Source: Anaerolineae bacterium
GTDB taxonomy: Bacteria > Chloroflexota > Anaerolineae > B4-G1 > SLSP01
DNA: 40,956 nucleotides
Assembly (NCBI GenBank): GCA_049975025.1
Contig: JBNGDU010000113.1
Coordinates: 1 to 40,956, forward strand
Direction: 5' to 3'
Made by a program: the position numbers and the translations under genes. The notes under the pieces are model-generated. The model saw nothing but the letters and a program-made list of their open reading frames with translations, searched no databases and had not been told where the DNA came from. Below, piece after piece: positions 10,245-40,956 of this stretch. The first letter of the stretch is position 1; the number at the start of each line of letters is the position of its first letter.

Positions 10245-11915
10245 ATGCGTCGTGTATGGTTGAGTCTCATGATTCTGGTGGCGCTTTTGGTCACCGCCTG
10301 CAGTGGAGGGCAACCCGCCGCAGCACCGACAGCCACACCCGCGGCTGCGGAGCCGGAGGCTACGGAAGCGCCGACCGAGGAGCCGATGGACGATCCGTCT
10401 GGTGAAGACCAGATCAGCATCGCCGGTTCGACGACGGTGCAGCCTGTGGCGGAGAAGGTCGGTGAGGCTTTCTCCGAGATGACGGGTGTGAAGGTGGACG
10501 TCGCGGGCGGTGGTTCGAGCTCGGGCGTCAAGGCGGCCGGCGACGGCACCGCCGACATCGGCAACGCGTCGCGTGACATCAAGGACTCCGAGTTGGAGAC
10601 CTATCCCGAGCTGGTGATCCACACGATCGCCAAGGACGGTATCGCCATCGTGTCGCACCCCGAGGGCACGGTCGACGAACTGACGACGGACCAGGTGCGC
10701 GACATCTTCGCTGGTGTCATCACCGACTGGAGCGAGGTTGGTGGCGAGAATGTGCCCATCACGGTGATCAGCCGTGAGGAGGGGTCGGGCACGCGGGGGG
10801 CGTTCGAAGAGATGGTGATGGGCGAGGACGCGGCGATTACGGACAGCGCGATCTTCCAGGACAGCAACGGCAAGGTGCGCACGGCTGTGGCCAGCACGCC
10901 GAACTCCATCGCGTTCCTCTCGTTCGGTTACCTGGACAACAGCGTCCTGGCGATCTCAATCGACGGCGTCGAGCCCACGGTGGAGAACGCGGTCAACGGT
11001 TCGTACCCCGTCGTGCGCCCGCTGAACATGGTGACGCTGGGCGAGCCCGAGGGCGCCGTCAAGGACTTCCTCGACTTCGTGATGTCGCCCGACGGTCAGG
11101 CGATTGTCGTGGACGAGGGGTTCATCGCCGTGGTCGAGGGTATGGGTGAGGAATCCGCTTCCGAACCACCCGCAGAGGGCCAGGGCCAGATCAGCATCGC
11201 CGGTTCGACGACGGTGCAGCCTGTGGCGGAGAAGGTCGGTGAGGCTTTCTCCGAGATGACGGGTGTGAAGGTGGACGTCGCGGGCGGTGGTTCGAGCTCG
11301 GGCGTCAAGGCGGCCGGCGACGGCACCGCCGACATCGGCAACGCGTCGCGTGACATCAAGGACTCCGAGTTGGAGACCTATCCCGAGCTGGTGATCCACA
11401 CGATCGCCAAGGACGGTATCGCCATCGTGTCGCACCCCGAGGGCACGGTCGACGAACTGACGACGGACCAGGTGCGCGACATCTTCGCTGGTGTCATCAC
11501 CGACTGGAGCGAGGTTGGTGGCGAGAATGTGCCCATCACGGTGATCAGCCGTGAGGAGGGGTCGGGCACGCGGGGGGCGTTCGAAGAGATGGTGATGGGC
11601 GAGGACGCGGCGATTACGGACAGCGCGATCTTCCAGGACAGCAACGGCAAGGTGCGCACGGCTGTGGCCAGCACGCCGAACTCCATCGCGTTCCTCTCGT
11701 TCGGTTACCTGGACAACAGCGTCCTGGCGATCTCAATCGACGGCGTCGAGCCCACGGTGGAGAACGCGGTCAACGGTTCGTACCCCGTCGTGCGCCCGCT
11801 GAACATGGTGACGCTGGGCGAGCCCGAGGGCGCCGTCAAGGACTTCCTCGACTTCGTGATGTCGCCCGACGGTCAGGCGATTGTCGTGGACGAGGGGTTC
11901 ATCGCGGTCAAGTAG
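10245..11915 (+). CDS. pstS: phosphate ABC transporter substrate-binding lipoprotein, tandem two-domain PstS
   Basis: Lipobox LLVTAC. Two identical PBP_like_2-type units, each with GSTTV, GGGSSSG, NASRD and EGSGTRG motifs. Strong SD aggagg at 10231-10236. Confidence 0.9.
   Translation: MRRVWLSLMILVALLVTACSGGQPAAAPTATPAAAEPEATEAPTEEPMDDPSGEDQISIAGSTTVQPVAEKVGEAFSEMTGVKVDVAGGGSSSGVKAAGDGTADIGNASRDIKDSELETYPELVIHTIAKDGIAIVSHPEGTVDELTTDQVRDIFAGVITDWSEVGGENVPITVISREEGSGTRGAFEEMVMGEDAAITDSAIFQDSNGKVRTAVASTPNSIAFLSFGYLDNSVLAISIDGVEPTVENAVNGSYPVVRPLNMVTLGEPEGAVKDFLDFVMSPDGQAIVVDEGFIAVVEGMGEESASEPPAEGQGQISIAGSTTVQPVAEKVGEAFSEMTGVKVDVAGGGSSSGVKAAGDGTADIGNASRDIKDSELETYPELVIHTIAKDGIAIVSHPEGTVDELTTDQVRDIFAGVITDWSEVGGENVPITVISREEGSGTRGAFEEMVMGEDAAITDSAIFQDSNGKVRTAVASTPNSIAFLSFGYLDNSVLAISIDGVEPTVENAVNGSYPVVRPLNMVTLGEPEGAVKDFLDFVMSPDGQAIVVDEGFIAVK
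10409..11905. repeat. perfect 720-bp direct tandem repeat (10409-11128 and 11186-11905, period 777 bp) inside pstS
   Basis: Base-by-base reading of both copies found no mismatch. They are separated by a 57-bp unique linker encoding VVEGMGEESASEPPAEGQG. Confidence 0.95.
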
Positions 11916-11968
11916 CGCGCGGAATCAGTCGGCGATCAGCTTGTTCAGTTGATTCAGGCATTCAGGCG

Positions 11969-12015
11969 AGGAGTAAGGAGTTGGCCACGCGCTACTTCTT
12001 ACTCCTTGCTTCTTG
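11969..12015 (+). terminator. intercistronic hairpin between pstS and pstC (partial terminator or processing/stability element)
   Basis: aggagtaag (11969-11977) pairs with cttactcct (11998-12006) around a 20-nt loop, followed by the T-rich tgcttcttg. Confidence 0.45.
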
Positions 12016-12028
12016 AAGGGAGGTAGGT

Positions 12029-12940
12029 ATGAGGCTGGCAGACATCACGGATCAAGTTGTGCGGTACGCTCTGCTGATTGCCGCGTTGCTTTCGGTCATC
12101 ATCTTGATCCTGATTGGGATTTTCACGCTCATTGAGTCTTGGGATGCATTTTCGCGAATCGGGGTCCTTGATCTTATCTTCGGCACGACGTGGCATCCTA
12201 TCCCCGATGATTTCGAGGCCAGCGAGTTTGGCATCCTTGGTATGATCTTCGCCTCGATCATCGTGACGGCTGGGGCGCTCGTGCTAGGCGTTCCGTTGGG
12301 CGTAGGCTGTGCGATCTTCCTGGCGGAGGTCGCGCCCGAAACTGTCCACAAGATCGTGCGCCCGGCGGTCGAGCTCCTGGCCGGTATCCCATCAGTGATC
12401 TACGGCTTGATCGGTATGGTCTGGTTAGTCCCGGTGATCCGCGATTTGATCCCAGTGGCTGGCAACCAAGGGTTCGGCTTCTTGGCAGCCTCCATCGTGC
12501 TGGCCGTGATGATCTTGCCGACGGTGATCAACATCGCCGAGGACGCGATTCGCGCAGTACCGCGCGAATATCGTGAAGGGTCGTTGGCCCTGGGAAGCAC
12601 CAAGTGGCAGACGATCACCAAGGTGATCGTGCCTGCCGCCCGGTCCGGCATCATTGCGGCCATCATCTTAGGGGTTGGGCGTGCATTGGGTGAGACTATG
12701 GCCATGGTTATGGTGATCGGGAACTCTACTCAATTTCCCTCGCCGCTCACGGCCAACCCGTTGACGATCTTTTTGAGCCGCGGACGTACCCTCACCGGCA
12801 ACGTTGTGATGGGTCTTAACTACGCTGCGGGCACGCACCGGAGCGCGCTCTTCGCGACGGGTATTGTGCTCTTCGTCATGATCATGATCGTTAACAGCAT
12901 GGCACGGCTCATCATCAGTCGTTGGTCACCCAAGAACTAG
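12029..12940 (+). CDS. pstC: phosphate ABC transporter permease PstC
   Basis: 303 aa, multi-TM. EAA-like loop AEDAIRAVPREYREGSLALGSTKWQTI. Operon position after pstS. Confidence 0.9.
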   Translation: MRLADITDQVVRYALLIAALLSVIILILIGIFTLIESWDAFSRIGVLDLIFGTTWHPIPDDFEASEFGILGMIFASIIVTAGALVLGVPLGVGCAIFLAEVAPETVHKIVRPAVELLAGIPSVIYGLIGMVWLVPVIRDLIPVAGNQGFGFLAASIVLAVMILPTVINIAEDAIRAVPREYREGSLALGSTKWQTITKVIVPAARSGIIAAIILGVGRALGETMAMVMVIGNSTQFPSPLTANPLTIFLSRGRTLTGNVVMGLNYAAGTHRSALFATGIVLFVMIMIVNSMARLIISRWSPKN

Positions 12941-12954
12941 AGGGGCGAGACACT

Positions 12955-14736
12955 ATGAATGCAGTGCGTGAGATGTCTTTGGAGCGAACAGAAGAGCAGG
13001 TCAAAGCGAACCTGAAGCGCCGCCGCGCTGTGGAGAAGGGTGCTTTTGGGATGCTGTGGCTCACGGGCGGCGTCGTGATCGTGGTGCTTTTCTTCGTGAT
13101 CGTCTATTTGCTGATTCAAAGCGGCAAGTTCTTCGTCGGCGACGAGGACCTGCTGGAGGACGCCGTTATGCTGGAATCCAACGCCGAGATCGCCGAGATG
13201 GTGGCGAGCGATCCGAATGCGATTGGCTATCTGTCACTGAGCTGTCTGGACGGGTCCGTCAAGCCTATCGTTCTGAACGGGGTGATGCCTTCGGTTGAAA
13301 TGGTTGGCGAGGGTTGGTATCCTATCGTGCAGGATCTCCACATGATGACACATGGGGAGATGACGCCGGTCACTGAGGCCTGGTTTGCGTTTGCCGTGAG
13401 CGAGGAAGGACAGGCCGTTGTGGCTGAAGCCGGATACGTCCCGGTGCCAAGTTCGGACTCCTATCGACCTTCGTCCGAACTCAGCGGAGAGCTCTCCATC
13501 GCCGGGTCAACCACGATGCAGTGCTTGGCTGAGAATCTGGCGGCAGCCTTCAACACCTACCATCCGGATGTGTCGATCACCATTGAGATCGAAGACTCCA
13601 CCAGCGGCATCAAGGACGCCGGCAAGGATAACGTCGACGTCGGCATGAGTTCGCGCGAGATTCGTGACTACGAATTCGTCCGTTACGATGGTCTCGTGGC
13701 GCATACTGTGGCTCAGGACGGCATTGCCATTGTCACCAACCCGCAGAACCCGGTGGGCGGCCTCACGATCAACCAGGCTCGCGACCTATTTACCGGCGTT
13801 ATCGCCAACTGGCAAGACGTTGGTGGCAATGATGCGACCGTCACGGTCGTCTCCCGTGAGCTGGGCACCGGCTCCTGGGACGGCTTCGAGAAGTGGGTCT
13901 TGAGCAAGAACGCGATGATGGCGAAAGGGTTGGATTCTGGGAACTTCCGGCTCTTCCTCCAGAATCTGTGGGCCAGCGTCAAGTTCATCTGGCGCTTCTT
14001 GACGACGCGTCCGTTGCCGGGCATGGGCGGCCACGGCGGTATCTCCACGACGATCATCACGACCGTCTACATGGTCGTTCTCACCCTTGTGATCGCGACG
14101 CCTTTGGGCGTGGGGGCTGCCATCTATCTGGTCGAGTACGCCGGTGAGATGAGCGGCAAGCAGAGCGGCTTGCTGAATAAGGTCGTCACGGTGATCCGCT
14201 TCGCCGTTGAGACGCTGGCCGGCGTGCCCTCGATCATCTACGGGCTCTTTGGCTTCGCTTTCTTCGTCACGGCGATCCGGTTGGGGCTCTCGATGATCGC
14301 GGGAGCTTTTGCCGGTGCGTGTCTTATCCTGCCGGTCATCATCCGCACGACGGAAGAGGCTCTGCTGACCGTGCCCCGCAGCTATCGCGAGGGCAGCCTG
14401 GCACTGGGCGCCACGAAGTGGCAGACGAACTATCAAGTGGTCCTGCCGGCTGCACTGCCCGGCATCGTTACGGGCATCATCTTGGGCGTCGGTCGTATCA
14501 TCAGTGAGACGGCGGTCTTCTACGTGACGTTGGGTGGTAGCATCAATATGCCTGAGTCTATTATGGACCAGGGACGGACCATGGTGCTGCATCTCTACTC
14601 CTTGATGATGGATGCGAATGCCCCGGATCCCGCGATGGGGACCGCGATTGTGATCATCTTCGTGATCGTGTTGATAAACCTGGCGATTAACTACTTCTCC
14701 AACCGGCTCTCTATGAGTCTGAGTGGGAAGTCCTAA
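12955..14736 (+). CDS. pstA: phosphate ABC transporter permease PstA carrying a ~270-aa PstS-like (PBP) domain in the TM1-TM2 loop
   Basis: The ATG at 12955 follows agagggg. TM1 LWLTGGVVIVVLFFVIVYLLI. An inserted PBP-like region spans 13129-13941. The canonical PstA core follows (TEEALLTVPRSYREGSLALGATKWQT). The ORF-track TTG at 12922 overlaps pstC. Confidence 0.85.
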   Translation: MNAVREMSLERTEEQVKANLKRRRAVEKGAFGMLWLTGGVVIVVLFFVIVYLLIQSGKFFVGDEDLLEDAVMLESNAEIAEMVASDPNAIGYLSLSCLDGSVKPIVLNGVMPSVEMVGEGWYPIVQDLHMMTHGEMTPVTEAWFAFAVSEEGQAVVAEAGYVPVPSSDSYRPSSELSGELSIAGSTTMQCLAENLAAAFNTYHPDVSITIEIEDSTSGIKDAGKDNVDVGMSSREIRDYEFVRYDGLVAHTVAQDGIAIVTNPQNPVGGLTINQARDLFTGVIANWQDVGGNDATVTVVSRELGTGSWDGFEKWVLSKNAMMAKGLDSGNFRLFLQNLWASVKFIWRFLTTRPLPGMGGHGGISTTIITTVYMVVLTLVIATPLGVGAAIYLVEYAGEMSGKQSGLLNKVVTVIRFAVETLAGVPSIIYGLFGFAFFVTAIRLGLSMIAGAFAGACLILPVIIRTTEEALLTVPRSYREGSLALGATKWQTNYQVVLPAALPGIVTGIILGVGRIISETAVFYVTLGGSINMPESIMDQGRTMVLHLYSLMMDANAPDPAMGTAIVIIFVIVLINLAINYFSNRLSMSLSGKS

Positions 14737-14760
14737 AGACAGAGACGCTGGAGGCAATGT

Positions 14761-15534
14761 ATGACAGCTTCTGAGATCAAACTTGAGGTTCAAGGATATA
14801 ACCTCTATTACGGTTCGTTCAAGGCGCTGGAGGATATCGCCGTTCAGATTCCGGCGCGGCAGGTGACAGCGATCATCGGCCCATCCGGATGTGGTAAGAG
14901 CTCCTTCTTGAGGACCTTTAACCGGATGAATGACTTGATTCCGGTTGCCCACGCCAACGGCGAGGTGATGATGGATGGCGACGATATTTTCTCAATGGAT
15001 GTCGTTGATCTGCGCCGCCGTGTAGGTATGGTCTTTCAACGTGCCAATCCATTCCCGAAGTCGATCTTCGACAACGTGGCGTATGGCCCGCGAGCCGGCG
15101 GAGTACGGGACCGCAACAAGCTCAACGGGATCGTGGAGCGTAGCCTTCGCGGCGCAGCTGTCTGGGATGAGGTCAAGGATGATCTAGGCAAGTCCGGGTT
15201 GGCGCTCTCCGGCGGTCAGCAGCAACGTCTCTGTATCGCCCGCGCGCTAGCGGTTGAACCCGAAGTCATCCTGATGGACGAGCCCGCCTCGGCACTCGAC
15301 CCCATCGCCACGCTGAAGATCGAGGAACTGATCCGCGAGCTCAAAGAGGAATACACGATCGTCATTGTCACCCACAACATGCAGCAGGCAGCCCGTGTCT
15401 CGGACTTCACGGCCTTCTTCTACACTGATGAGAGTCGAACCGGACAACTTGTCGAGTTCGGTCCGACCAAGAAGATCTTCACCAACCCCGATGATGAGCG
15501 GACGGAAGATTACATCACAGGGCGCTTTGGGTAG
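14761..15534 (+). CDS. pstB: phosphate ABC transporter ATP-binding protein PstB
   Basis: Walker [10 protein letters not shown], signature LSGGQQQRL, Walker B ILMDEP, C-terminal YITGRFG. Confidence 0.95.
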
Positions 15535-15647
15535 AGGTGTGGAAGGGCTCTTGGTTTTCTGGAGTCTTAGGAACCCGACAAAGCTCAGGACATGTCAGGC
15601 TTCGCTGTATCCCCCTGGGTGGCATGGGTGGAAATTAGGGGTAAGTT

Positions 15648-16310
15648 GTGATCACGAAACCTAGAGAGACGTTCCGCCGTGAATTGGGGCAGTTGCTCGA
15701 CCAGGTCTTGGCGTTGGGCAGTATGGTCGAGGACGCGATATTGGTCTCGGTAGCGATGTTGAAGAAGCGGGATATCGAGGGATCCCGTCGCATCATCGAA
15801 CGTGATCAGGAGATCAATGCGAAGCGATTTGAGATTGAGGATCAAGCGCTTGCGCTCATCGCCCTGCATCAGCCTGTGGCGAGGGATCTGCGGCTTCTCG
15901 GCGCGATCTTGGAGGTAGCCACCGAGCTCGAGCGTATTGGCGATTATGCCAAGGGGATCGCCAAGGTCAACGTCCTGATGGGAGATGCACCGCTGCTCAA
16001 GCCACTGATTGACATACCTTTCATGGCGGGGAAAGCGATGGACATGCTCCGTCAGAGCTTGGACGCTTTCGTGTCACGGGATATCCAGGCGGCTCAGACC
16101 ATCCCCGCGCTGGATGATGAGGTGGACGCACTCTACAATCAGGTCTACCGTGAGCTGATCACCTACATACTGGACGATCCGCGATGTATTGAGCAGGCCA
16201 ATCACCTCCTCTGGGTCGCGCACAATCTGGAGCGGGCGGCGGACCGCGTTTCCAATGTCTGTGAGAGGACGATTTTCATGGTGACGGGGAAGATGCAGGA
16301 ATTGAACTGA
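15648..16310 (+). CDS. phoU: phosphate signalling complex protein PhoU
   Basis: 220 aa with a GTG start. Two PhoU repeats with E(L)ERIGDYA and NLERAADRVSN motifs. Lies downstream of pstB. Confidence 0.9.
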   Translation: MITKPRETFRRELGQLLDQVLALGSMVEDAILVSVAMLKKRDIEGSRRIIERDQEINAKRFEIEDQALALIALHQPVARDLRLLGAILEVATELERIGDYAKGIAKVNVLMGDAPLLKPLIDIPFMAGKAMDMLRQSLDAFVSRDIQAAQTIPALDDEVDALYNQVYRELITYILDDPRCIEQANHLLWVAHNLERAADRVSNVCERTIFMVTGKMQELN

Positions 16311-20838: not shown

Positions 20839-21672
20839 TCAGGCCAGTTTCAGATGCTTGAAGTCCTCGACCTGTTGGCGAATAGCGCGTTCGGTGGGCA
20901 GCCGCTCGATGCTGGAAGCTCCGAAGAACCCGACCACGCCCGGCATCTTGATCAGCGCCTTGCCGACGTTGGGGGGTTCGTCGAAGACCCCGCCGTGGCA
21001 GATCACCATCACGTCATCGCGGACGCTCTTCCCGGCTTCGTAGACCTCCATGACTTTGTCGACGGCCTCGTCCATGGTCATAGCGACGCCGGCGCCGATG
21101 GAGCCCGAGGTCGTGAGCCCGATGTGGGCGACGAGGACGTCCGCTCCCGCGTTCGTCATTGCCTTGGCGTCATCGGCGTTGAAGACGTAGGGGCAGGTGA
21201 GCATATCCAACTCGTGGGCGATCCGGATGGACTCGATCTCCTTGTCATAGCCCATACCCGTCATCTCCAAGTTGGCCCGGAAATCGCCGTCGATCAGCCC
21301 GACGGTGGGGAAGTTCTGAACCCCGGTGAAGCCCATCTCCTTGAGCTGAGCGATGAAGATGGGCATCAAGCGGAAGGGATCGGTGCCGCACACGCCGGCC
21401 AGCACGGGCGTGTCCTGCACGACGGGCAGGACCTCCGAGGCCATCTCCACGACGATGCCGTTGGCGTCGCCGTAGGGCATCAACCCGGCCAGCGAACCCC
21501 GGCCTGCCATGCGGTACCGACCCGAGTTGTAGATGATGATCAGATCCGCGCCGCCGCGCTCCGCGAACTTGGCTGAGATGCCCGTGCCCGCGCCGCATCC
21601 GATGATCGGTACCTTTTCCTCGACGTTCTTCCGCAGTCGTGAGAGTGCTTCTGTTCGTGTTATGAAAGCCAT
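20839..21672 (-). CDS. phosphoenolpyruvate hydrolase-like TIM-barrel protein (Tm-1 C-terminal-domain family)
   Basis: 277 aa. IIGCGAGTGISAKFAERGGADLIIIYNSGRYRMAGRGSLAGL. Immediately downstream of a UPF0261 gene, the usual pairing. Confidence 0.7.
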   Translation of the reverse strand: MAFITRTEALSRLRKNVEEKVPIIGCGAGTGISAKFAERGGADLIIIYNSGRYRMAGRGSLAGLMPYGDANGIVVEMASEVLPVVQDTPVLAGVCGTDPFRLMPIFIAQLKEMGFTGVQNFPTVGLIDGDFRANLEMTGMGYDKEIESIRIAHELDMLTCPYVFNADDAKAMTNAGADVLVAHIGLTTSGSIGAGVAMTMDEAVDKVMEVYEAGKSVRDDVMVICHGGVFDEPPNVGKALIKMPGVVGFFGASSIERLPTERAIRQQVEDFKHLKLA

Positions 21673-33982: not shown

Positions 33983-36900
33983 CTATGTTAACTTCGCAGC
34001 CAACTCATCCAGCCCTGTATCTGGATCCTCCGCCCGGACCACCACGACGCGATACCCTAACGCCTTCAGACGCCTGCGCTTGCGGGCATCGGCGGCCTGC
34101 ACGTAGTCGCGGTAGTGCGGGGAGCCGTCGACGAAGACGACGATCCTGGGCTCGTAGTAGAAGTCGGCGATGACCAGCGGCTCGTCGCCATCGTAGATTA
34201 CCTTCTGCGCCTCGTCCGGCAGCGGCAGTGCTCGATCGCGGATCGCCATCAGCACCTGCCGCTCAAGATCGGAGCCGCATTGCTCGACCAGGGCCCCGAA
34301 ACGATCCTCACTCACGACTGCGTCGACGCTTAGGTCGGCCAGCGACTGCAGCCACGGCAGCACCAAGGTCCGGTCGAGCAGCTCATGCACTCGCTGATTG
34401 TAGAAGCTCAGCAGGCATGCGTAACAGGCTTGCTCGCATCCTCCTTCCGGATCACCCTCGTGCAACAGCTCCCGCGCCCGATCTACGGTTGTCATCAGCC
34501 GACCCGGCTCACTCAACGAGGCCAACACACCGCTTCCCCCGACCGTCGTCTCATAGAGCACGATGCGATAGCGAATCACCTGCTCCGTCTCGGCGTCCTG
34601 CGGCACCGGTGCTAGGAATCCGTTGAGTTCACGCTCGTCGAGGTTGAATGCCACCAGCAAGGCGCGGAGCAAAGTGTGCGTCAGCGTGACGTAGAAGCTC
34701 TCAGCCTGATCCAGCGGCACGCCCTCAGGTAGGGGGACGTCGAAGAGGGCAAGATCACTGCGTATGGATGTCGTCAACCAAAGACCGCGCTCCAGATCCT
34801 CAGGTCCTGCGTGGCGCGGACATTCACCTTGGGCCTGTGGGGTATAGACATGCTTGTCCGGCGCATTATCGCCAAGCAGCCACGCATGGCACTTCCGGCA
34901 CAAGGTGAACCCCTCAGGACGCCCTTCAGCATCCGGGGGGCCTTGATTGATGCGCAGCACCTCACCATTGTGTTCCAGAGTCATCCTGAAGGCCTCAAGA
35001 CGCCTTCTCGAGACGGTGTACGCTTGCTGCTCACCACCCGCGCGGTAGTGAGATGATGTGACATATCCGCGCCGCCTGCGCTCCTCCTCATCAGCCGTGA
35101 TGCGGGCGCGCGCCTGCGCATACATATCGACCATCCCCATCGCCTTCTGCCCGTGGACGATGGTCAGATCTGCCCCGCAGTCACACCGCGCCCGCCCGAC
35201 CTCTGCCTGTCCCACATAGGCACGCTGACACTCCGGACAGATTTGGACGGGTTCAATGTCCAATTCCATCTCGCCCTTGCCGCTCTCATCATAGACGCGG
35301 CGCCGACGCGGTCGCGCGTGCGTGACCGCGTATTGCTCGCCGCGGTAGTAGACGAAGTTGCCCGGTGCGTACTCGCCTAGTGCGATCTCGGGATCACGAG
35401 CGAGCTCGTCCTCCCGATCGTTGAAAGAGAGAATTGTCGCCTGCGGCGGGAAAGCGTAACCCGGCAGAAAACCCTCACCGCCTAGGTATCGATAGAGATA
35501 CCAGTCCCCATGACCCTCCCGCATCCGCTGGAGTTTCCTTTCAATCACGTCCCGCCTGCGGCTCAGGCTGGGATCGACATGCTCAGAGCCCAGCGTGACG
35601 TTGATTGCCTCCCGTTCGGCATCAAGACGCTCATATTCCGTACGCCAGCGCTCCATCTTCAGATCGAGCGTGGGAACGAAGCCGCGGATTACCTCTTCGA
35701 TGAAAGGACGATCCAGCCACGCGAATCTGACCATCTCCGCCGCAAAGGCCGACTCAACGGCCTCGACAATCCTCGCAAAGTGAGTCTCGATGCCCTGCTG
35801 GTAGGCAGCCCGCCAGTCTGCAAACAGTGGATAGTGCGCGTCCGGACGGCTGTGGTCAAGGAGATCCTGCGGCTTGCCCGGCAACCGTTGGGCGCCCAGA
35901 AGCCCTAACGTCTCCAGAACTAGGGCGTGGATGTGGCTGGTGAGCAGCGCTTCGTTGTCCAACCGGAACCTGGGCGCGGCGATGGCCCCCGCGATCATCT
36001 TCTCCGGGAACCGGTAGAAGTACTGATCGTGCGGCCCGCGGGCGCTTCCCACGCCGGCAAAGACCGAGATCAAGGCCGCCTGACCGCTCCGCCCTGCCCG
36101 ACCGGCGCGCTGTGCGTAGTTGGAAGGACTCGGGGGCACATTTCTCAGCGTCACCGCGTTCAAATGGCCGATGTCGATACCGAGCTCCATCGTCGGTGTG
36201 CAAACCAGTACGTTCAGAGGATCCTCAGGATCGCGAAAACGAATCTCGATCTCGCGACGCTCTCTACCTCCGACCTGACCGGAGTGCTCCTCGGCGGTAA
36301 CCGGCATCGCCTGCCCAAGAGGGGTCGCATAGACCTTGCGGAAGTAGTTGTCCGTGAGATCCCGCTCTTCCAGCGTCGTCCGGCATGTCGAGCCGGTGCA
36401 GACCCGCAACGTGCGAAAGCGATGAACCGTGCCACACTTAGGGCAGCGCCAGTGCTCGCTTGCCTGGTCGGCCCACAGAAGTACGTCAGGGCTCAACATC
36501 CAGAGGTCGAATCGTCGCCGCGTACGATAGGGAGAGGCGGTGCGCCGGACCAGAAACTCCGCCCTTGGGTCCCCCAGCTTCTCCACGATACGCCCAAGTA
36601 GCCTCTGCGCGCTCTCAAAGTCCACAGGTTCACCTATAGCGTCAAAGACCCGCCGCAGCCAGACCATCGGCTGAGTGTTAGCAGAGGTCGTGAGCCGGTA
36701 GACGGTGAGCGGAAATCTGTTAGGGGCTGAGTCGCTGTAGCCTATTGGGCCTCTGAAGGTGTCGTCGTGGATGAAAGCTTCTTCGTTGAGGTTCCCCAAG
36801 ATATCGCGCGCGAACTTGAGGGGTTCCAGAATCGGCGAGTACGGCAGGGCCAAGCGTTTGCGCAGGATGTCCATTAGCCCCAGCAACAGATCGTAGCGGA

Positions 36901-39601
36901 TGTCGACCGGGAGCGACGCCATCTCCGGCACGTCAGCCCACCAGTCTTCGTCCGCGGCTACATCAGGGAGGCCTGCGTACCCGACCGCCAACAGCCCGAC
37001 ATCCTCCAGGTTCTGGTGCGTGCGGCGGTGCGTGGCTCCCAGCTCCCATAGCCCGACGAAAGAGAGATAGTCGCGATAGCGTTGCTCGGCCTTAGCATCG
37101 CGTTTGAACTTGCTTGTGCTCTTGCGGAAGTTGGGCAAGACGTGATGGCGCTGCTGGCCCTCAAACAACAGGTTGCCAACCTCCTGCAGCCTCAATCCCT
37201 CGCCGTTCCCCCAGATGTGGCCCGCCTCCTTGAGCGCCGTGTAGAGTGTCTGACGGAAGGTGAAACGACGATGCAGGCTGTTCATGTGGGCCGCCTGAAG
37301 CGCGGTGTCCTGCCGGTTGTCCGAGAAGGCGATCACCTTGTTGGCTTCTGCCGGGAGCGACTGCACTTGGGCGCTCACGAGAACGTCGGTGGCGGTGGAA
37401 CGCCCCACGGAACCAAAGGTGAAGAGCTTGTTGTACTCCCGTGACCGCCGGTCGTGTACGATGCCGCAGCTTGGACACAGAAGGAAGGGTGCCGGCAGAA
37501 ACGTGACCGGAAACGCCCGTGGATGCGTGCAGACCGGACGACTGTCATCTCGCCCTTCGCCATCCTGCCTACCTGGACTGATGAGCGAGCCCCTGTAAGG
37601 CAGGTCTGACAGCAGCTGACCACAATCAGGACAGACATACATCGGTGACGGCACGACATCCTGATAGCCATGCTTTCCACCGCGAACCTTGCCGGTCTTC
37701 GTACGCCAGTGGTCCGGCAGCTCGATCTCCTCATGGCCACGCATAAGATAACCGGCTTTCCCCAGCAGGTCGACCGCGTCCAACTCGGCTGGATGGAGGC
37801 GATCCTCCTCATCAACGGCGACCGACCAATACTCCTGTCCACAAGCCCGGCAGAAGACTAGGGGAAAGGTCGGCACTCCGGGGCGACCAGCCTCCGCACA
37901 GACCGGGCAGACGCGTTCCCCGCGGTCGTTGAGATGCGGGTCGCGCGGATCCAGGCACGCCGAGATTGCGCGCCCCTGCGAGAAGAAAGCGTGGAGTTTG
38001 AGGGCCAGGCGATGCTCGTCATCACCGTCTCGGTCGCCCTGCTGCTTTAGGAGCGTGGCGGCCACCTCTTCAGGTGTCATCTGCGCGCCATCGGCCAGAT
38101 CGGGCAGCGCCAGAGGGCCCCCTGTCAGCGCGTCGGCAAGCCGGTGGACGTCAGGATCGAGATCCGCAGGCCACGGTGCGTATGACTCCGTCACCACGTT
38201 GGCTGCATCGAAGGGCTCGCCGGAAAGCTTAGTCGCGAAGTCGGCGACAGCTTCCCCGGCGCTCGTCTCGCCGGTGCTCTCAACGGTGGCGCTGGTCGCG
38301 ATGCAGCGCAGCTTACCCGTCGTCCCCGTATGTTGCTTCAGTCGCCGGATCAGCGCGGCGACATCGGCCCCTCGCTTGCCGGTGTATGTGTGGACCTCGT
38401 CCAAGACAAGGAACTTGAGCACGCCCGGCGCTGCAAACAGCTTCCGATCCTCGAAGCGCGTCAAGAGCAGCTCCAGCATCACGTAATTGGTCATCAGGAT
38501 GTCCGGCGGCTGGGTCTGGATCCGCTCTCGCGAGAGGATCTCACTGTCGTAGGGTGTCTCACGTCCGGTAGCGCGCTTATGCTGGTCCAGGGCCTCGCCC
38601 TCCGAGGACGGCGTGTCCCCAGTGTAGCGGGCGATCGTCAAACCGCTGCCGTGGAGGCGCGCAGCAAAGTCGTCATACTGGGAGTTGGCCAGGGCGTTCA
38701 TCGGGTAGACAATCACGGCTTTGATGCCTCGTGTGCCCGGCCCGCCCCGATCTCGGTCGCGCAGTGCCTGAGAGACGATCGGAATGCCGAAGGCAAAGGA
38801 CTTGCCCGACCCTGTGCCCGTCGCGACCACGACGTTGGCGCCGGCACTGTCCCCATAGCCCATCCCAGCGTCGCCAAGGATCGCGCGAACGGCCTCGGTC
38901 TGATGCCGGTAAGGCGCGATCGGGGGCGATTCGGGGTCGTCCAGGTCGCGGCGGAAAACTCTGAGAACCCCCGGATGCAACAGGCCTCCATCAACCAAAG
39001 CAGGAAGCGATTCCCCCGATGCAAAGGGACGCGAGAGTTGGATATAGGGCGGCTTCCAAAGCAGCGTCCCATTCTGGATCCGCTCCATCACCCAGTCGCG
39101 AATCGCCGGGTCCTGGAAGCGCTGGAAGGTCTCGACGTAGGTCCGGTAGTCGGCTCGTACGTGCTCCAGGATCTTGAAGGGGTCGACTGCTGTCACCGGT
39201 GGCCTCACCGTGACCGGAAAACTCACCGTTTCCGACGGGCGTGGGGACAGATCTTGCGAGGTGCCGGCTCGGGACGGCTCTGGGGGTGGCTGTGTCCCGG
39301 GGGCGGACTTTGCCCCAGGGGCGGGCTTTACCCCCTCGCTCAGGGCCGACATGATCGCCGGCATAAAGGCTTGTTGCACGTCGGGACGCATCGTGTGCAC
39401 CAGAAGCGCGTTGGACAACACCGCCGGGGATCGGACCGCGACGATGGCCTTGCACATCACCTCAGCGAACTCCGACGTCACCCGCTCGACGTGGGTGAAA
39501 TCGAGCTGTGCGTCCTCCTCGCTGACCCTTGTTGCCAGCTCGTGTGCCAGTGTTGAATCATCCAAGACGGCTTGTGTCAAGACAACGTTATTGTCGGACA
39601 T
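33983..39601 (-). CDS. 1872-aa SF2 DEVH-box helicase fused to a DUF1998/MrfA-type Zn-binding domain and a C-terminal Vsr/DUF559-like endonuclease (DruE-like architecture)
   Basis: Walker A ATGTGSGKS (38798-38824), DEVH (38390-38401), SAT, motif IV VIAFSDNRQD, motifs V/VI TPTMELGIDIG and QRAGRAGR (36089-36112). DUF1998-type GEGFLPGYAFP and GCEQACYACLLSFYNQ..H..LDR. C-terminal ADFYYEPRIVVFVDGSPH...RRRLKALGYRVVVVR. GGAGG SD at 39606-39610. Confidence 0.85.
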   Translation of the reverse strand: MSDNNVVLTQAVLDDSTLAHELATRVSEEDAQLDFTHVERVTSEFAEVMCKAIVAVRSPAVLSNALLVHTMRPDVQQAFMPAIMSALSEGVKPAPGAKSAPGTQPPPEPSRAGTSQDLSPRPSETVSFPVTVRPPVTAVDPFKILEHVRADYRTYVETFQRFQDPAIRDWVMERIQNGTLLWKPPYIQLSRPFASGESLPALVDGGLLHPGVLRVFRRDLDDPESPPIAPYRHQTEAVRAILGDAGMGYGDSAGANVVVATGTGSGKSFAFGIPIVSQALRDRDRGGPGTRGIKAVIVYPMNALANSQYDDFAARLHGSGLTIARYTGDTPSSEGEALDQHKRATGRETPYDSEILSRERIQTQPPDILMTNYVMLELLLTRFEDRKLFAAPGVLKFLVLDEVHTYTGKRGADVAALIRRLKQHTGTTGKLRCIATSATVESTGETSAGEAVADFATKLSGEPFDAANVVTESYAPWPADLDPDVHRLADALTGGPLALPDLADGAQMTPEEVAATLLKQQGDRDGDDEHRLALKLHAFFSQGRAISACLDPRDPHLNDRGERVCPVCAEAGRPGVPTFPLVFCRACGQEYWSVAVDEEDRLHPAELDAVDLLGKAGYLMRGHEEIELPDHWRTKTGKVRGGKHGYQDVVPSPMYVCPDCGQLLSDLPYRGSLISPGRQDGEGRDDSRPVCTHPRAFPVTFLPAPFLLCPSCGIVHDRRSREYNKLFTFGSVGRSTATDVLVSAQVQSLPAEANKVIAFSDNRQDTALQAAHMNSLHRRFTFRQTLYTALKEAGHIWGNGEGLRLQEVGNLLFEGQQRHHVLPNFRKSTSKFKRDAKAEQRYRDYLSFVGLWELGATHRRTHQNLEDVGLLAVGYAGLPDVAADEDWWADVPEMASLPVDIRYDLLLGLMDILRKRLALPYSPILEPLKFARDILGNLNEEAFIHDDTFRGPIGYSDSAPNRFPLTVYRLTTSANTQPMVWLRRVFDAIGEPVDFESAQRLLGRIVEKLGDPRAEFLVRRTASPYRTRRRFDLWMLSPDVLLWADQASEHWRCPKCGTVHRFRTLRVCTGSTCRTTLEERDLTDNYFRKVYATPLGQAMPVTAEEHSGQVGGRERREIEIRFRDPEDPLNVLVCTPTMELGIDIGHLNAVTLRNVPPSPSNYAQRAGRAGRSGQAALISVFAGVGSARGPHDQYFYRFPEKMIAGAIAAPRFRLDNEALLTSHIHALVLETLGLLGAQRLPGKPQDLLDHSRPDAHYPLFADWRAAYQQGIETHFARIVEAVESAFAAEMVRFAWLDRPFIEEVIRGFVPTLDLKMERWRTEYERLDAEREAINVTLGSEHVDPSLSRRRDVIERKLQRMREGHGDWYLYRYLGGEGFLPGYAFPPQATILSFNDREDELARDPEIALGEYAPGNFVYYRGEQYAVTHARPRRRRVYDESGKGEMELDIEPVQICPECQRAYVGQAEVGRARCDCGADLTIVHGQKAMGMVDMYAQARARITADEEERRRRGYVTSSHYRAGGEQQAYTVSRRRLEAFRMTLEHNGEVLRINQGPPDAEGRPEGFTLCRKCHAWLLGDNAPDKHVYTPQAQGECPRHAGPEDLERGLWLTTSIRSDLALFDVPLPEGVPLDQAESFYVTLTHTLLRALLVAFNLDERELNGFLAPVPQDAETEQVIRYRIVLYETTVGGSGVLASLSEPGRLMTTVDRARELLHEGDPEGGCEQACYACLLSFYNQRVHELLDRTLVLPWLQSLADLSVDAVVSEDRFGALVEQCGSDLERQVLMAIRDRALPLPDEAQKVIYDGDEPLVIADFYYEPRIVVFVDGSPHYRDYVQAADARKRRRLKALGYRVVVVRAEDPDTGLDELAAKLT

Positions 39602-39610
39602 AGGGCCTCC

Positions 39611-40956
39611 TCAGCTCAGCTTCAGCCAGTGATCGTCTGTAAGCAGACCGATGAAGGGCGACGGCAGAGAACGGTCGTAGGTGACAAAGAGATGGCGCAT
39701 CGCACGCGTGCATCCGACGTAGAAGAGACGTCGCTGATCGTAGAGATGCTCCTTGATCTCCTCCGGGTCGGTCGCTTGTGAGTCGCGCGGCAGCCGATCG
39801 GCCTCGACGTGTGCGATGGCCACCACGGGGAACTCGAGCCCCTTCGCCGCGTGGAGCGTCATCACCTTCACGCATCGTTCCTCCAAGCGCACCTCCCGGC
39901 TTGAGACATAGCGCGCGGGCAACCCCTGTGCCTGCAGCAGGTGGGCTAAGTTCTCCGCCAGGTTGTTGCTCGGGACCAGAACAGCAGCGCTGTTGACCGG
40001 CAGCCTCAACTCCTGCGCCGATCTCCAGAGCTGCTCGGCCAGCCAGCGCGCCTGGTCGCCGGTTCCCTCCGCGGCGTAGCCCACGGGCAGAGCGCCCGCG
40101 TGGACATACTCCTGCTCTGCCGCTTCCCCGTCGGCGTCCTCCATGCCCGTCAGGACATCGTGGGCCGCCATCGCGATCTGCCTGGTGCTACGATAGTTGC
40201 GACGCAAGATGCGTGTGCGTCCCTGCACCCGGAGTTGGTTGTGGACGTTCTTCCAGCGGAAGCCGCGGTTGTAGAGCGACTGGTTGGCATCGGCAGTGAG
40301 GAAAAGGCCCGCCGGATCCCGGCAAAGCTCGACACAGAGCGCTAGGGCGACCGGCGTCAGGTCCTGCGCCTCGTCCACGATGACGTAGTCCCACCGCTGA
40401 TCGAAGGCACCCGTCTGGACTAGCTCCAGCGCGGCCTGCCGTAGTTGTCCCCAGGTCATCAGCTCGCGGCGCTGCAGGTGGTCAATATACGCCGTGTAGA
40501 GCTCCCAGACCCGCTCGCGCAGCGAACGGCTGAAGGGGATGCCCCGACCAACGCGCTGGGCGTGGTAGTAGTCCTCCAGGGTCCGGCAGTTCTGGCCCTC
40601 GATGATCCACGTGAACTCATCGAGCAGATAGCGATCGTGCAGGTGATCCAGCGCGCCGGCAGCCAGCAGCGTCTCCAAACCCTCGAGCGCCGGCTGGGGG
40701 CCTGCCGTGCGGGCATAGTGAAGCGCCTCCCGGCGTGCGTCGTCGTCGACCATACGCTCTCTCACGCCACCCCTGCGGACGATCCACATCGCGACCTTGT
40801 CCACGGTCGTCACACGAATGGCAGGGGGCAGACGACCGTGCACCAGGCCTAGACCATCGCGCAACAGCTGGTGTAGTAGCGACTCGCTGAAGTTGGTGAG
40901 CGCATTGGTGAAGGTCGTGAAAAGCAGGCTCGGGACTTCGCCCGTCTCCTCTAGAG
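39611..40956 (-). CDS. UvrD/Rep-like SF1 helicase, N-terminus truncated by the window edge
   Basis: The frame stays open to 40956. Motif Ia LLFTTFTNAL, II YVIVDEAQD, III LTADANQSLY, IV RRNYRST, V TLHAAKGLEFPVV, VI FYVGCTRA. The Walker A motif lies outside the window. Confidence 0.85.
   Translation of the reverse strand, partial: LEETGEVPSLLFTTFTNALTNFSESLLHQLLRDGLGLVHGRLPPAIRVTTVDKVAMWIVRRGGVRERMVDDDARREALHYARTAGPQPALEGLETLLAAGALDHLHDRYLLDEFTWIIEGQNCRTLEDYYHAQRVGRGIPFSRSLRERVWELYTAYIDHLQRRELMTWGQLRQAALELVQTGAFDQRWDYVIVDEAQDLTPVALALCVELCRDPAGLFLTADANQSLYNRGFRWKNVHNQLRVQGRTRILRRNYRSTRQIAMAAHDVLTGMEDADGEAAEQEYVHAGALPVGYAAEGTGDQARWLAEQLWRSAQELRLPVNSAAVLVPSNNLAENLAHLLQAQGLPARYVSSREVRLEERCVKVMTLHAAKGLEFPVVAIAHVEADRLPRDSQATDPEEIKEHLYDQRRLFYVGCTRAMRHLFVTYDRSLPSPFIGLLTDDHWLKLS

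Follow-up and report, generated by a model that had tools for sequence, protein, structure and literature searches.

ARMADA anti-phage systems were defined in 2025 by the association of a YprA-like helicase, a BrxHII-like helicase and a PglX-like methyltransferase (Bell et al., bioRxiv 10.1101/2025.09.15.676423; PMC12458937). Their parts are ArmA (BrxHII-like helicase), ArmB (PglX-like methyltransferase), ArmC (YprA-like helicase with a Vsr nuclease) and ArmD (RelE-fused, GajB-like UvrD helicase), and the defence branch of the YprA family splits into DISARM/Dpd on one side and a clade comprising ARMADA, BRIGADE and TALON as well as Druantia on the other (PMC12458937). Type I is described as a three-gene system, ordered ArmC-ArmA-ArmB or, reversed, ArmA-ArmB-ArmC, whose ArmC carries "a predicted active Vsr-type nuclease", and ArmD is given as a trait of Type II, where it comes after ArmC (PMC12458937). 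Here we analyzed a contig of a metagenome-assembled genome (MAG) of an Anaerolineae bacterium over its whole length of 40,956 bp (the window), in which two adjacent minus-strand genes encode a UvrD-like helicase and a giant helicase of 1872 residues, the contig edge lying 1.35 kb upstream of the latter. This region very probably holds the distal two genes, armD-like and armC-like, of an ARMADA-family, DISARM-related anti-phage system, the remaining core genes most probably being located past the contig end.

Family assignment of the helicase pair

Table S1 of PMC12458937 names four homologues of the large protein as "ARMADA Type I helicase": MBN1247611.1 (71% identity), HNT74631.1 (66%), MDD5367864.1 (54%) and the Salinibacter protein PQJ33609.1 (49%). 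The window's own protein was not found in the part of this table that was examined. Alignment to the ArmC of the canonical Mycobacterium Type I C-A-B locus extended over the full length (30% identity, 1862 columns, 548 bits), whereas against E. coli Type II ArmC (141 bits) and DruE (127 bits) the highest-scoring local alignments were confined to the RecA1 region; the E. coli references (ArmA to ArmD and DruE) were taken from the O157 Sakai genome, in which armABCD corresponds to ECs_5261-5264. By sequence, the large protein is placed in the ARMADA Type I clade of YprA/DruE-family superfamily 2 (SF2) helicase-nucleases. The traits of a Type II ArmC (membership of the Type II clade, often with an extra EEP domain and an inactive Vsr) were not found in it, the Pfam scan of the protein detecting no EEP domain. 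Nor does the gene order correspond to the strict A-B-C-D of Type II, as the armD-like gene precedes the armC-like gene here. The forward Type I order, C-A-B, is excluded by the metabolic genes downstream of the armC-like gene; the reversed order, A-B-C, is found in relatives, but with extra genes, including armD, between ArmB and ArmC.

An earlier note on this DNA had held that the gene pair matches no described type and might be a new two-helicase system. The first statement is outdated, given that Table S1 (PMC12458937) lists homologues of 49-71% identity as ARMADA Type I helicases, and the second is unlikely, near relatives being catalogued as ARMADA Type I and ArmB lying upstream in 4/4 armD-armC lineages with at least 9 kb of upstream sequence. 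The locus does not represent a new kind of system but a truncated member of a clade that had been catalogued before as Type I.

The partner matched Pfam UvrD_C (4e-27) and UvrD-helicase (1.5e-13), with GajB as its best PADLOC match (1.8e-34). Over its 447 residues, the partner shares 82% identity with positions 269-715 of a protein of 715 aa whose gene, in locus L001, lies directly upstream of that of an 86%-identical helicase. The N-terminal ~268 aa of the partner are cut off by the contig end; in relatives, the corresponding part has a RelE/ParE-fold domain and a linker as well as the Walker A motif. The N-terminus of the L001 partner matched ParE_toxin (30.2 bits for a 23-bit cut-off) and the RelE-like PDB chain 2khe ("toxin-like protein", 1.6e-4), and the JGI annotation of many partner homologues reads "superfamily I helicase / RelE". 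Over the helicase, the L001 partner is colinear with E. coli ArmD (26% identity, 519 aa, E 3e-41). The predicted RelE-fold plus UvrD build of the full-length relatives is the ArmD architecture; the earlier note, which saw in the partner a superfamily 1 (SF1) helicase, missed the RelE-like N-terminus because it is cut off by the window edge.

ArmD-like genes were also located elsewhere around ArmC. The order C-A-B-D was found in a Mycobacterium Type I locus (L068), whose ArmD shares 36% identity with that of E. coli along its entire length (705 aa), and in a Chloroflexota locus (L099); in L018, a partial PglX-like gene is followed by ArmC and next by ArmD. The comparison shows that helicases with the predicted RelE-UvrD build of ArmD are not restricted to Type II and take three different positions in Type-I-clade loci. 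A metagenome scan with the partner alignment returned only five loci, all too short upstream to be informative.

To describe the neighbourhood, we surveyed 80 genome loci with relatives of the helicase. ArmA-like and ArmB-like genes lie beside it in nearly all surveyed loci that extend far enough, either downstream (C-A-B, mostly actinomycetes) or upstream (A-B-C), and the linkage crosses phyla. Among the armD-armC lineages with at least 9 kb of upstream sequence, four of four (L091, L093, L094 and L100) carry an ArmB-like methyltransferase gene on the same strand, 5.9-11.5 kb upstream of ArmC. ArmB-like methyltransferases of armD-armC relatives matched the PADLOC DrmMI family (5e-75 and 2e-71), and the product of the SNF2 ArmA-like gene of L091 is 41% identical to an archaeal ArmA-like protein.

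The lack of a visible methyltransferase gene, which the earlier note had pointed out, is true of the window but is a contig-end effect: only 1.35 kb of upstream sequence precedes the large gene, short of the distance at which relatives carry theirs. Its warning that further components might lie past position 40956 was apt. Since ArmB is present in the upstream sequence of relatives, the missing partners are probably past the contig edge. In the simplest reading, the break of the contig lies within armD, and what remains of the system would be found past it. ArmB, a predicted PglX/DrmMI-like N6-adenine methyltransferase of ~1400 aa, and ArmA, a predicted SNF2/BrxHII-like helicase of ~950 aa, would most probably lie 4-12 kb further upstream, and a variable block of small nuclease and toxin-antitoxin genes is most probably to be expected between the contig edge and ArmA/ArmB.

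Gene junction, domain organization and the STAS-like domain

The armC-like gene occupies positions 33983..39601 of the minus strand (1872 codons, ATG at 39601-39599, stop codon at 33985-33983), as established from the open reading frame (ORF) and its translation; homology search identified an identical protein, MGC9346933.1, annotated "MAG: Anaerolineae bacterium". The 3′ part of the armD-like gene lies at 39611..40956 on the same strand (447 codons plus stop, TGA at 39613-39611), its ORF being open from the window end (40954) to the TGA without a start codon in the window. Between the two is a 9-nt intergenic spacer, GGAGGCCCT (39602..39610, minus strand), with a Shine-Dalgarno-like GGAGG (39606-39610) directly after the armD-like stop codon, and the minus-strand junction, read directly, is CTGAGC-TGA-GGAGG-CCCT-ATG. 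The large ORF, the junction and the open UvrD-like ORF are exactly as claimed before. The 9-nt spacing suggests translational coupling of the two genes. In relatives, the armD-armC gap is 13-194 nt: adjacency is kept and tight coupling is not. In E. coli O157 Sakai (L096), armC and armD overlap by 4 nt (21042-21045), tight packing thus being found in both gene orders.

All the domains of the large protein are encoded on the minus strand. First, a STAS-like domain (divergent DUF4325), identified by profile-profile and fold match, covers aa 1-90 (nt 39332..39601) and is followed by a Pro-rich linker at aa 91-135 (nt 39197-39331), with 12 Pro in residues 91-140. Secondly, RecA1 (DEAD) is found at aa 232-442 (nt 38276..38908; Pfam DEAD 2.2e-21), with the motifs ATGTGSGKS at 260-268 (Walker A GTGSGKS, K267), DEVH at 401-404 and SAT at 437-439; K267, D401, E402 and H404 are invariant across 14 homologues. 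Thirdly, an insertion at aa ~540-1075 (nt 36377..37984) separates RecA1 from the conserved part of RecA2. It contains the RecA2 start motif VIAFSDNRQD (aa 756-765) and the first five of the CxxC pairs located at aa 565, 584, 657, 709, 1053 and 1455, and its cysteines are invariant in the alignment of 14 homologues. In position, this insertion appears to correspond to the BrxA-like, Zn beta-barrel and MarR-like inserts of ARMADA and Druantia helicases (domain names from PMC12458937). The conserved core of RecA2 (Helicase_C) lies at aa 1100-1173 (nt 36083..36304; Pfam 1.9e-12), with TPTMELGIDIG at 1135-1145 and QRAGRAGR at 1164-1171.

Downstream of RecA2, GEGFLPGYAFP was located at aa 1375-1385 and CRKC at aa 1568-1571. 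The MZB/DUF1998 Zn-binding domain covers aa 1640-1730 (nt 34412..34684; PF09369, 32.2 bits for a 24.2-bit cut-off, 2e-7) and includes GCEQACYAC at 1721-1729, in which C1722, C1726 and C1729 are invariant among homologues; the DUF1998 part of the ArmC-like protein corresponds to the OB-CON-DUF1998 canopy described for the family. The C-terminal end is formed by a Vsr/DUF559-type PD-(D/E)xK nuclease domain at aa ~1768-1872 (nt 33986..34300), which scored 23.3 bits with DUF559 (cut-off 20.6 bits) when this domain was scanned alone. It contains VFVDGSPH (1822-1829, including D1825), and D1813, D1825, H1829, D1838 and K1841 are invariant. The AlphaFold2 (AF2) model of the nuclease has a pLDDT of ~90 over the domain, and its best PDB folds were the Vsr-like nuclease I-Bth0305I (3r3p_B; probability 0.89, E 0.08) and the DUF559 protein 3hrl, the former being the PDB entry also given by Bell et al. 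for the ArmC Vsr domain (PMC12458937). The protein ends 12 residues past the last helix of this domain. The ArmC-like nuclease is thus predicted to be single, of Vsr type and active. The motifs quoted for the large protein in the earlier note were all recovered in place, its domain order was correct, and the five Pfam families that it named for verification (DEAD, Helicase_C, DUF1998, DUF559 for the isolated domain, and UvrD_C) were all found.

The same note had described a small N-terminal domain, which is present, but had missed its STAS-like identity. This nature was revealed only by profile-profile comparison and fold search: Pfam returned nothing for the N-terminal 131 aa even at E <= 1, and BLASTP of the region against a DUF4325-bearing sister protein was not significant. 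A profile built from 24 such N-termini matched the DUF4325 N-termini of sister ArmC proteins with 96% probability (E 4.8e-9, hhalign), and PF14213 was matched weakly by 19 of the 24 family members. The best PDB fold for the AF2 model of the domain (pLDDT 87.8) was RsbS (6jhk_B, probability 0.97, TM 0.52). The STAS-like domain is rare: a search of 1.84 billion proteins yielded only 37 representatives, in all of which it sits at the very N-terminal end.

Two forms occur, each with its own upstream neighbour. In the A form, ArmD is always directly upstream (seven non-identical loci: the window, L001, the L003 group, L008, the L012 group, L093 and L094), and in the B form, which has a bona fide DUF4325, a 305-aa HATPase_c (GHKL ATPase) protein is always directly upstream (L002, L011 and L019). 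Neither a STAS-like domain nor such a neighbour was present in 75 of 96 loci, and ArmC proteins with ArmD downstream or absent do not have the domain. These distributions show that a small Chloroflexota lineage fuses a predicted STAS-like domain to ArmC exactly when a partner gene is directly upstream. The N-terminal sequences and the alignment (A3) contain no invariant Ser/Thr in the A form; classical SpoIIAA-type phosphoregulation is therefore not supported for this form. Neither the STAS domain nor the armD-before-armC order is mentioned in the examined parts of the ARMADA preprint text and supplements (PMC12458937). As a tentative proposal, which we regard as possible rather than probable, the armD-armC arrangement could be an undescribed ARMADA sub-type in which the acquired STAS-like domain docks or partner-switches with the product encoded immediately upstream. 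If true, ArmD and ArmC would constitute a separable sensor-effector unit whose activation is gated via the STAS interaction, offering a handle on ARMADA switching.

The gene for the 305-aa HATPase_c protein is located at 8985-9902 in L002, with equivalents before the DUF4325 ArmC of L011 and L019. Its product matches positions 36-277 of the PADLOC DrmA model PDLC02567 (2.5e-22). A pairing of GHKL and STAS may recur across DISARM and ARMADA helicases.

Upstream neighbourhoods and rival explanations

The four informative armD-armC lineages differ in what they carry around ArmB. In L091, an SNF2 ArmA is followed by MNT/HepT, ArmB (1407 aa), a PIN toxin-antitoxin, a 186-aa protein, DUF8426/Mrr_cat, a 218-aa protein, ArmD, ArmC and Fic. 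L093 carries ArmB, proteins of 416 and 572 aa, a PLD-like protein (960 aa), Mrr_cat/NA-iREase1, ArmD and ArmC, while in L094 a different helicase precedes ArmB, a ZacA/ZacB-like pair, ArmD and ArmC. In L100, ArmB stands ahead of Mrr_cat/NA-iREase1, a CBS protein, a helicase resembling the C-terminal half of SNF2, DUF8426/Mrr_cat, a 346-aa protein, ArmD and ArmC. The ArmB-to-ArmD block of relatives is thus a variable stretch of 3-9 kb with small nuclease and toxin-antitoxin genes. Judging from the gene content, the stretch between ArmB and ArmD/ArmC is shown to be a hotspot for embedded toxin-antitoxin and predicted nuclease genes.

The cargo between ArmB and ArmD/ArmC (L091 871-9935; L100 655-10004; L093 2629-9961; L094 5435-9971; L005 4687-9894) includes MNT/HepT and PIN toxin-antitoxin genes, DUF8426-Mrr_cat and NA-iREase1 nucleases and a ZacA/ZacB-like pair, with DarT/DarG in Salinibacter. 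A CBS protein (277-291 aa) and a 467-482-aa helicase like the C-terminal half of SNF2/BrxH/DrmD recur beside ARMADA Type I loci in three phyla (L005 6597-8830; L100 5614-7921; L012 36-2052; L037 22671-24877). Directly upstream of armD, a conserved protein of ~217 aa is encoded in L001 (2396-3049), L003 (7107-7763) and L008 (1-117). It has an N-terminal region like a winged helix-turn-helix and a D...D-A-K motif resembling PD-(D/E)xK, with no significant Pfam or PADLOC match; in the window's genome, the gene would sit just past the contig end. Away from ArmC, one ArmD-like helicase, in L098 (6142-12133), belongs to a defence island and overlaps a McrB(EVE/DUF8426)-McrC pair at the end of the latter, and another stands alone among housekeeping genes in L097 (10001-12151). 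The ArmD-like helicase appears to be a modular component.

Several observations weigh against the assignment of the locus to a truncated ARMADA system. ArmA and ArmB are not in the window (tblastn) and cannot be shown for the window's genome. Among the armD-armC lineages, ArmA upstream of ArmB was confirmed in L091 only, and the helicase upstream of ArmB in L094 has no ArmA similarity in the 336 aa visible. L001, the closest relative (86% identity), has no methyltransferase gene in the 3 kb upstream of armD, and for the ArmC-like protein of L014 (56% identity) no ArmA or ArmB was found within 10 kb on either side. The ArmD-like helicases that adjoin McrBC (L098) or stand alone (L097) are 57-60% identical to the L001 partner. 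The armD-then-armC order and the STAS-like domain are undescribed for ARMADA in the parts of PMC12458937 examined. For the Vsr domain, the structural match is a weak one (Foldseek E 0.08), which supports the Pfam hit without standing alone. Finally, the mechanism proposed below is drawn by analogy only, and the literature searched contained reported experiments for Type II ARMADA and none for Type I.

Some of these points would fit a self-sufficient two-gene defence module, consisting of the RelE-UvrD helicase and the STAS-helicase-Vsr protein and needing no methyltransferase or SNF2 helicase, which we nevertheless consider unlikely. The two genes are adjacent and co-oriented in 7/7 non-identical loci, with a gap of 9 nt here; L001 and L014 lack the partners over the distances just given; ArmD-like helicases occur in modular fashion, beside McrBC or solo; and the genes between ArmB and ArmD are so variable that ArmB could belong to a neighbouring defence-island system. 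However, an ArmB-like methyltransferase gene on the same strand is present in all four armD-armC lineages with enough upstream sequence, linkage to a methyltransferase and an SNF2 helicase was observed in nearly all long-enough loci of the 80, across phyla and in either gene order, and all four genes are essential in E. coli. Moreover, the upstream region of L001 is too short to test the absence of a methyltransferase. L014 is a 25-kb locus examined on a 398-kb Chloroflexi contig, in which no ArmD-like gene was found within 10 kb on either side either; it could represent an orphan or a system organised in another way.

It is very improbable that the pair belongs to Druantia, as a new type or a type III-like one in which the large protein would be DruE and the UvrD-like helicase would replace DruH or DruA-D. 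The top PADLOC families of the large protein were indeed DruE1 (4e-121) and DruE3 (7e-116), with DruE2 also matched and DrmA at 1e-16. Its PDB sequence matches were 9tu7 (a 2108-aa DEAD/DEAH helicase, 9e-52), 9wae and MrfA (6znp, 2e-17), bearing out the kinship with DruE, DrmA/B and MrfA that had been proposed. We take 9tu7 and 9wae, the closest solved structures by sequence, to be DruE structures, the entry name of 9tu7 being only DEAD/DEAH box helicase. Such cross-hits to DruE are expected, as PADLOC-DB 2.0 (2023) is older than the description of ARMADA, the sister clade of DruE. No DruA-D, DruF-H or DruM gene was found in any related locus examined, the neighbours being ArmA-like and ArmB-like, and the 127 bits to E. 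coli DruE, over RecA1 only, compare with 548 bits over the full length to Type I ArmC. The nuclease of DruE is a PLD in type III, and types I and II have a Vsr that is inactivated (PMC12458937), whereas the Vsr catalytic residues are invariant here.

PADLOC-DB 2.0 labels the window's ARMADA helicase (33983-39601) as DruE. "DruE" orphans called with older databases may in many cases be ARMADA ArmC, and a partnerless Druantia-like match should be checked against ARMADA.

A vertically inherited, housekeeping DNA-repair machine related to MrfA/YprA-MrfB is barely credible: the MZB/DUF1998 helicase core is common with MrfA (6znp), UvrD-family members are classic repair helicases, metabolic genes lie downstream and the GC content is that of the flanks, but the large protein is 2.5 times the size of MrfA and has Zn-module inserts of the defence-branch type, methyltransferase, restriction-like nuclease, toxin-antitoxin, DarTG and Fic genes abound in related loci, the published tree has near relatives in its defence branch, close relatives do not share flanking genes, and NCBIfam repair-helicase matches all fall far below their cut-offs. 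With its variable flanks, the defence-island neighbours of its relatives and the placement of near relatives on that branch, the truncated ARMADA locus is, by its predicted genes, a defence locus and not a repair locus. Where the earlier note had offered a defence or repair module, defence is the best reading and repair is not favoured.

Outside the helicase pair, the window carries ordinary chromosomal genes (gal, two-component systems, Pst/PhoU, dehydrogenases, GFO/IDH/MocA and Zn-ADH); the GFO/IDH/MocA and Zn-ADH genes lie downstream of the armC-like gene, in agreement with the earlier description. No tRNA gene was found in the window, no integrase among the window ORFs scanned, and no shift in GC content at the helicase module relative to the flanks in the window, so that mobility of the locus cannot be shown from the window itself. 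The genes that flank the loci are nevertheless different even where protein identity reaches 86% (window and L001), and an integrase gene lies within about 4 kb of the Salinibacter locus. A promoter and terminator scan returned nothing above background. Elsewhere in the window, a phosphate-uptake cluster at 10245-16310 encodes PBP-like binding proteins, permeases, an ABC ATPase and PhoU, and within it a PBP_like_2 domain and a BPD_transp_1 permease domain are fused in the ORF at 12922-14736.

Proposed mechanism and comparison with known systems

The E. coli ARMADA II system protects against 13 of 80 phages and depends on each of its four genes, on the Walker A motif in all three of its helicases and on the NPPW motif in ArmB (PMC12458937). 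Its defence is non-abortive, the host cell being neither killed nor shut down (PMC12458937; in enterohaemorrhagic E. coli, PMC13463889). DruE, a helicase-nuclease, binds single-stranded DNA, unwinds in the 3′-to-5′ direction and is activated at duplex-single-strand junctions or forked DNA. Our analysis covers the family assignment, domain architecture and conserved neighbourhood of the locus, and the mechanism is proposed by analogy with the genetics of E. coli ARMADA II and the biochemistry of DruE, MrfA and DISARM. ArmB would mark host DNA as self. ArmC would load on single-stranded DNA or on single-strand/duplex junctions of unmodified invading or replicating phage DNA, then move 3′-to-5′ and cut with its Vsr domain. 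ArmD would be an auxiliary UvrD-type motor needed for activation or substrate processing; more speculatively, it might be tethered through the STAS-like domain of ArmC, acting as a docking or regulatory module. Defence would then be direct and non-abortive.

As a truncated MAG copy of an already catalogued Type I clade, the locus itself adds little. ARMADA was, however, named only in 2025, and the position of ArmD, the STAS fusion and the cargo hotspot provide leads on the regulation of ArmC.

Among the other systems of the defence branch, BRIGADE was ruled out (no 7-deazaguanine genes; reported from haloarchaea only), as was TALON, the C-terminus of the large protein being without an RNase H-like domain and no NERD, TPR-CSD or TBP neighbours being seen. 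MrfA/YprA-MrfB has in common the MZB/DUF1998 SF2 helicase core, but MrfA is ~750 aa long, has no Zn-module inserts, works with a separate exonuclease and belongs to the repair branch of the family tree. Membership of MrfAB/YprAB was rejected in view of the 1872 aa with large inserts, the lack of an adjacent MrfB-like gene and the non-conserved flanks. The resemblance to Gabija GajB and to UvrD, PcrA and Rep concerns the partner, a UvrD-family SF1 helicase for which GajB was the best defence-family match; unlike them, the relatives of the partner carry a RelE-fold N-terminal domain. Gabija was ruled out, no GajA (OLD-family nuclease) being found in the window or related loci.

DISARM class 1 (DrmA/DrmB/DrmC/DrmD/DrmMI) also combines a YprA-family helicase with DUF1998, an SNF2 helicase and a DrmMI-type methyltransferase. 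In DISARM, however, helicase and MZB are split between DrmA and DrmB, in contrast with the single ORF that fuses them here, and the nuclease is the PLD enzyme DrmC instead of a Vsr-type domain. DISARM membership was excluded by this fusion, by the DrmA match of only 1e-16 and by the absence of a PLD gene from the window. In Druantia, DruE forms the sister clade, is likewise a giant YprA-family helicase-nuclease with Zn-module inserts and DUF1998, and provides the strongest PADLOC matches, the nearest solved structures and the best biochemical model (3′-to-5′, activated at single-strand/duplex junctions). Yet its partners (DruH, DruA-D, DruM/F/G) were not found in the window or related loci examined, its nuclease is PLD (type III) or an inactivated Vsr (types I and II), and it is without the linkage to a methyltransferase and SNF2. 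Despite strong DruE hidden Markov model matches, Druantia membership was ruled out for lack of any Dru partner in the same loci.

With ARMADA Type II (E. coli armABCD of NCTC 12900, EDL933 and Sakai, ECs_5261-5264 in the last), the locus and its relatives have in common the four-component parts list, including the RelE-fold and GajB-like UvrD helicase, and a tight packing of armC and armD (a 4-nt overlap in E. coli, a 9-nt gap here). They differ in gene order, A-B-C-D in E. coli and D-C at the end of the locus here, and in the build of E. coli ArmC, which has 2113 aa, an extra EEP, a second Vsr and no STAS domain. Similarity between the ArmC proteins is mostly in the RecA core (141 bits), and ArmD identity is 26%.

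ARMADA Type I is the closest described system. Three features set the present lineage apart from it: the ArmD-like gene directly upstream of ArmC, the N-terminal STAS-like domain and Pro-rich linker added to this ArmC, and, in relatives, the variable block of 3-9 kb between ArmB and ArmD. The ArmD-upstream arrangement and the STAS-like domain are minor variant features, that is, sub-type details. The helicase clade, the build of ArmC and its single, predicted-active Vsr end are those of Type I; relatives are linked to a BrxHII/SNF2-like helicase and a PglX/DrmMI-like methyltransferase, and their ArmA and ArmB genes lie upstream of ArmC, in the reversed order of many archaea and cyanobacteria (PMC12458937).

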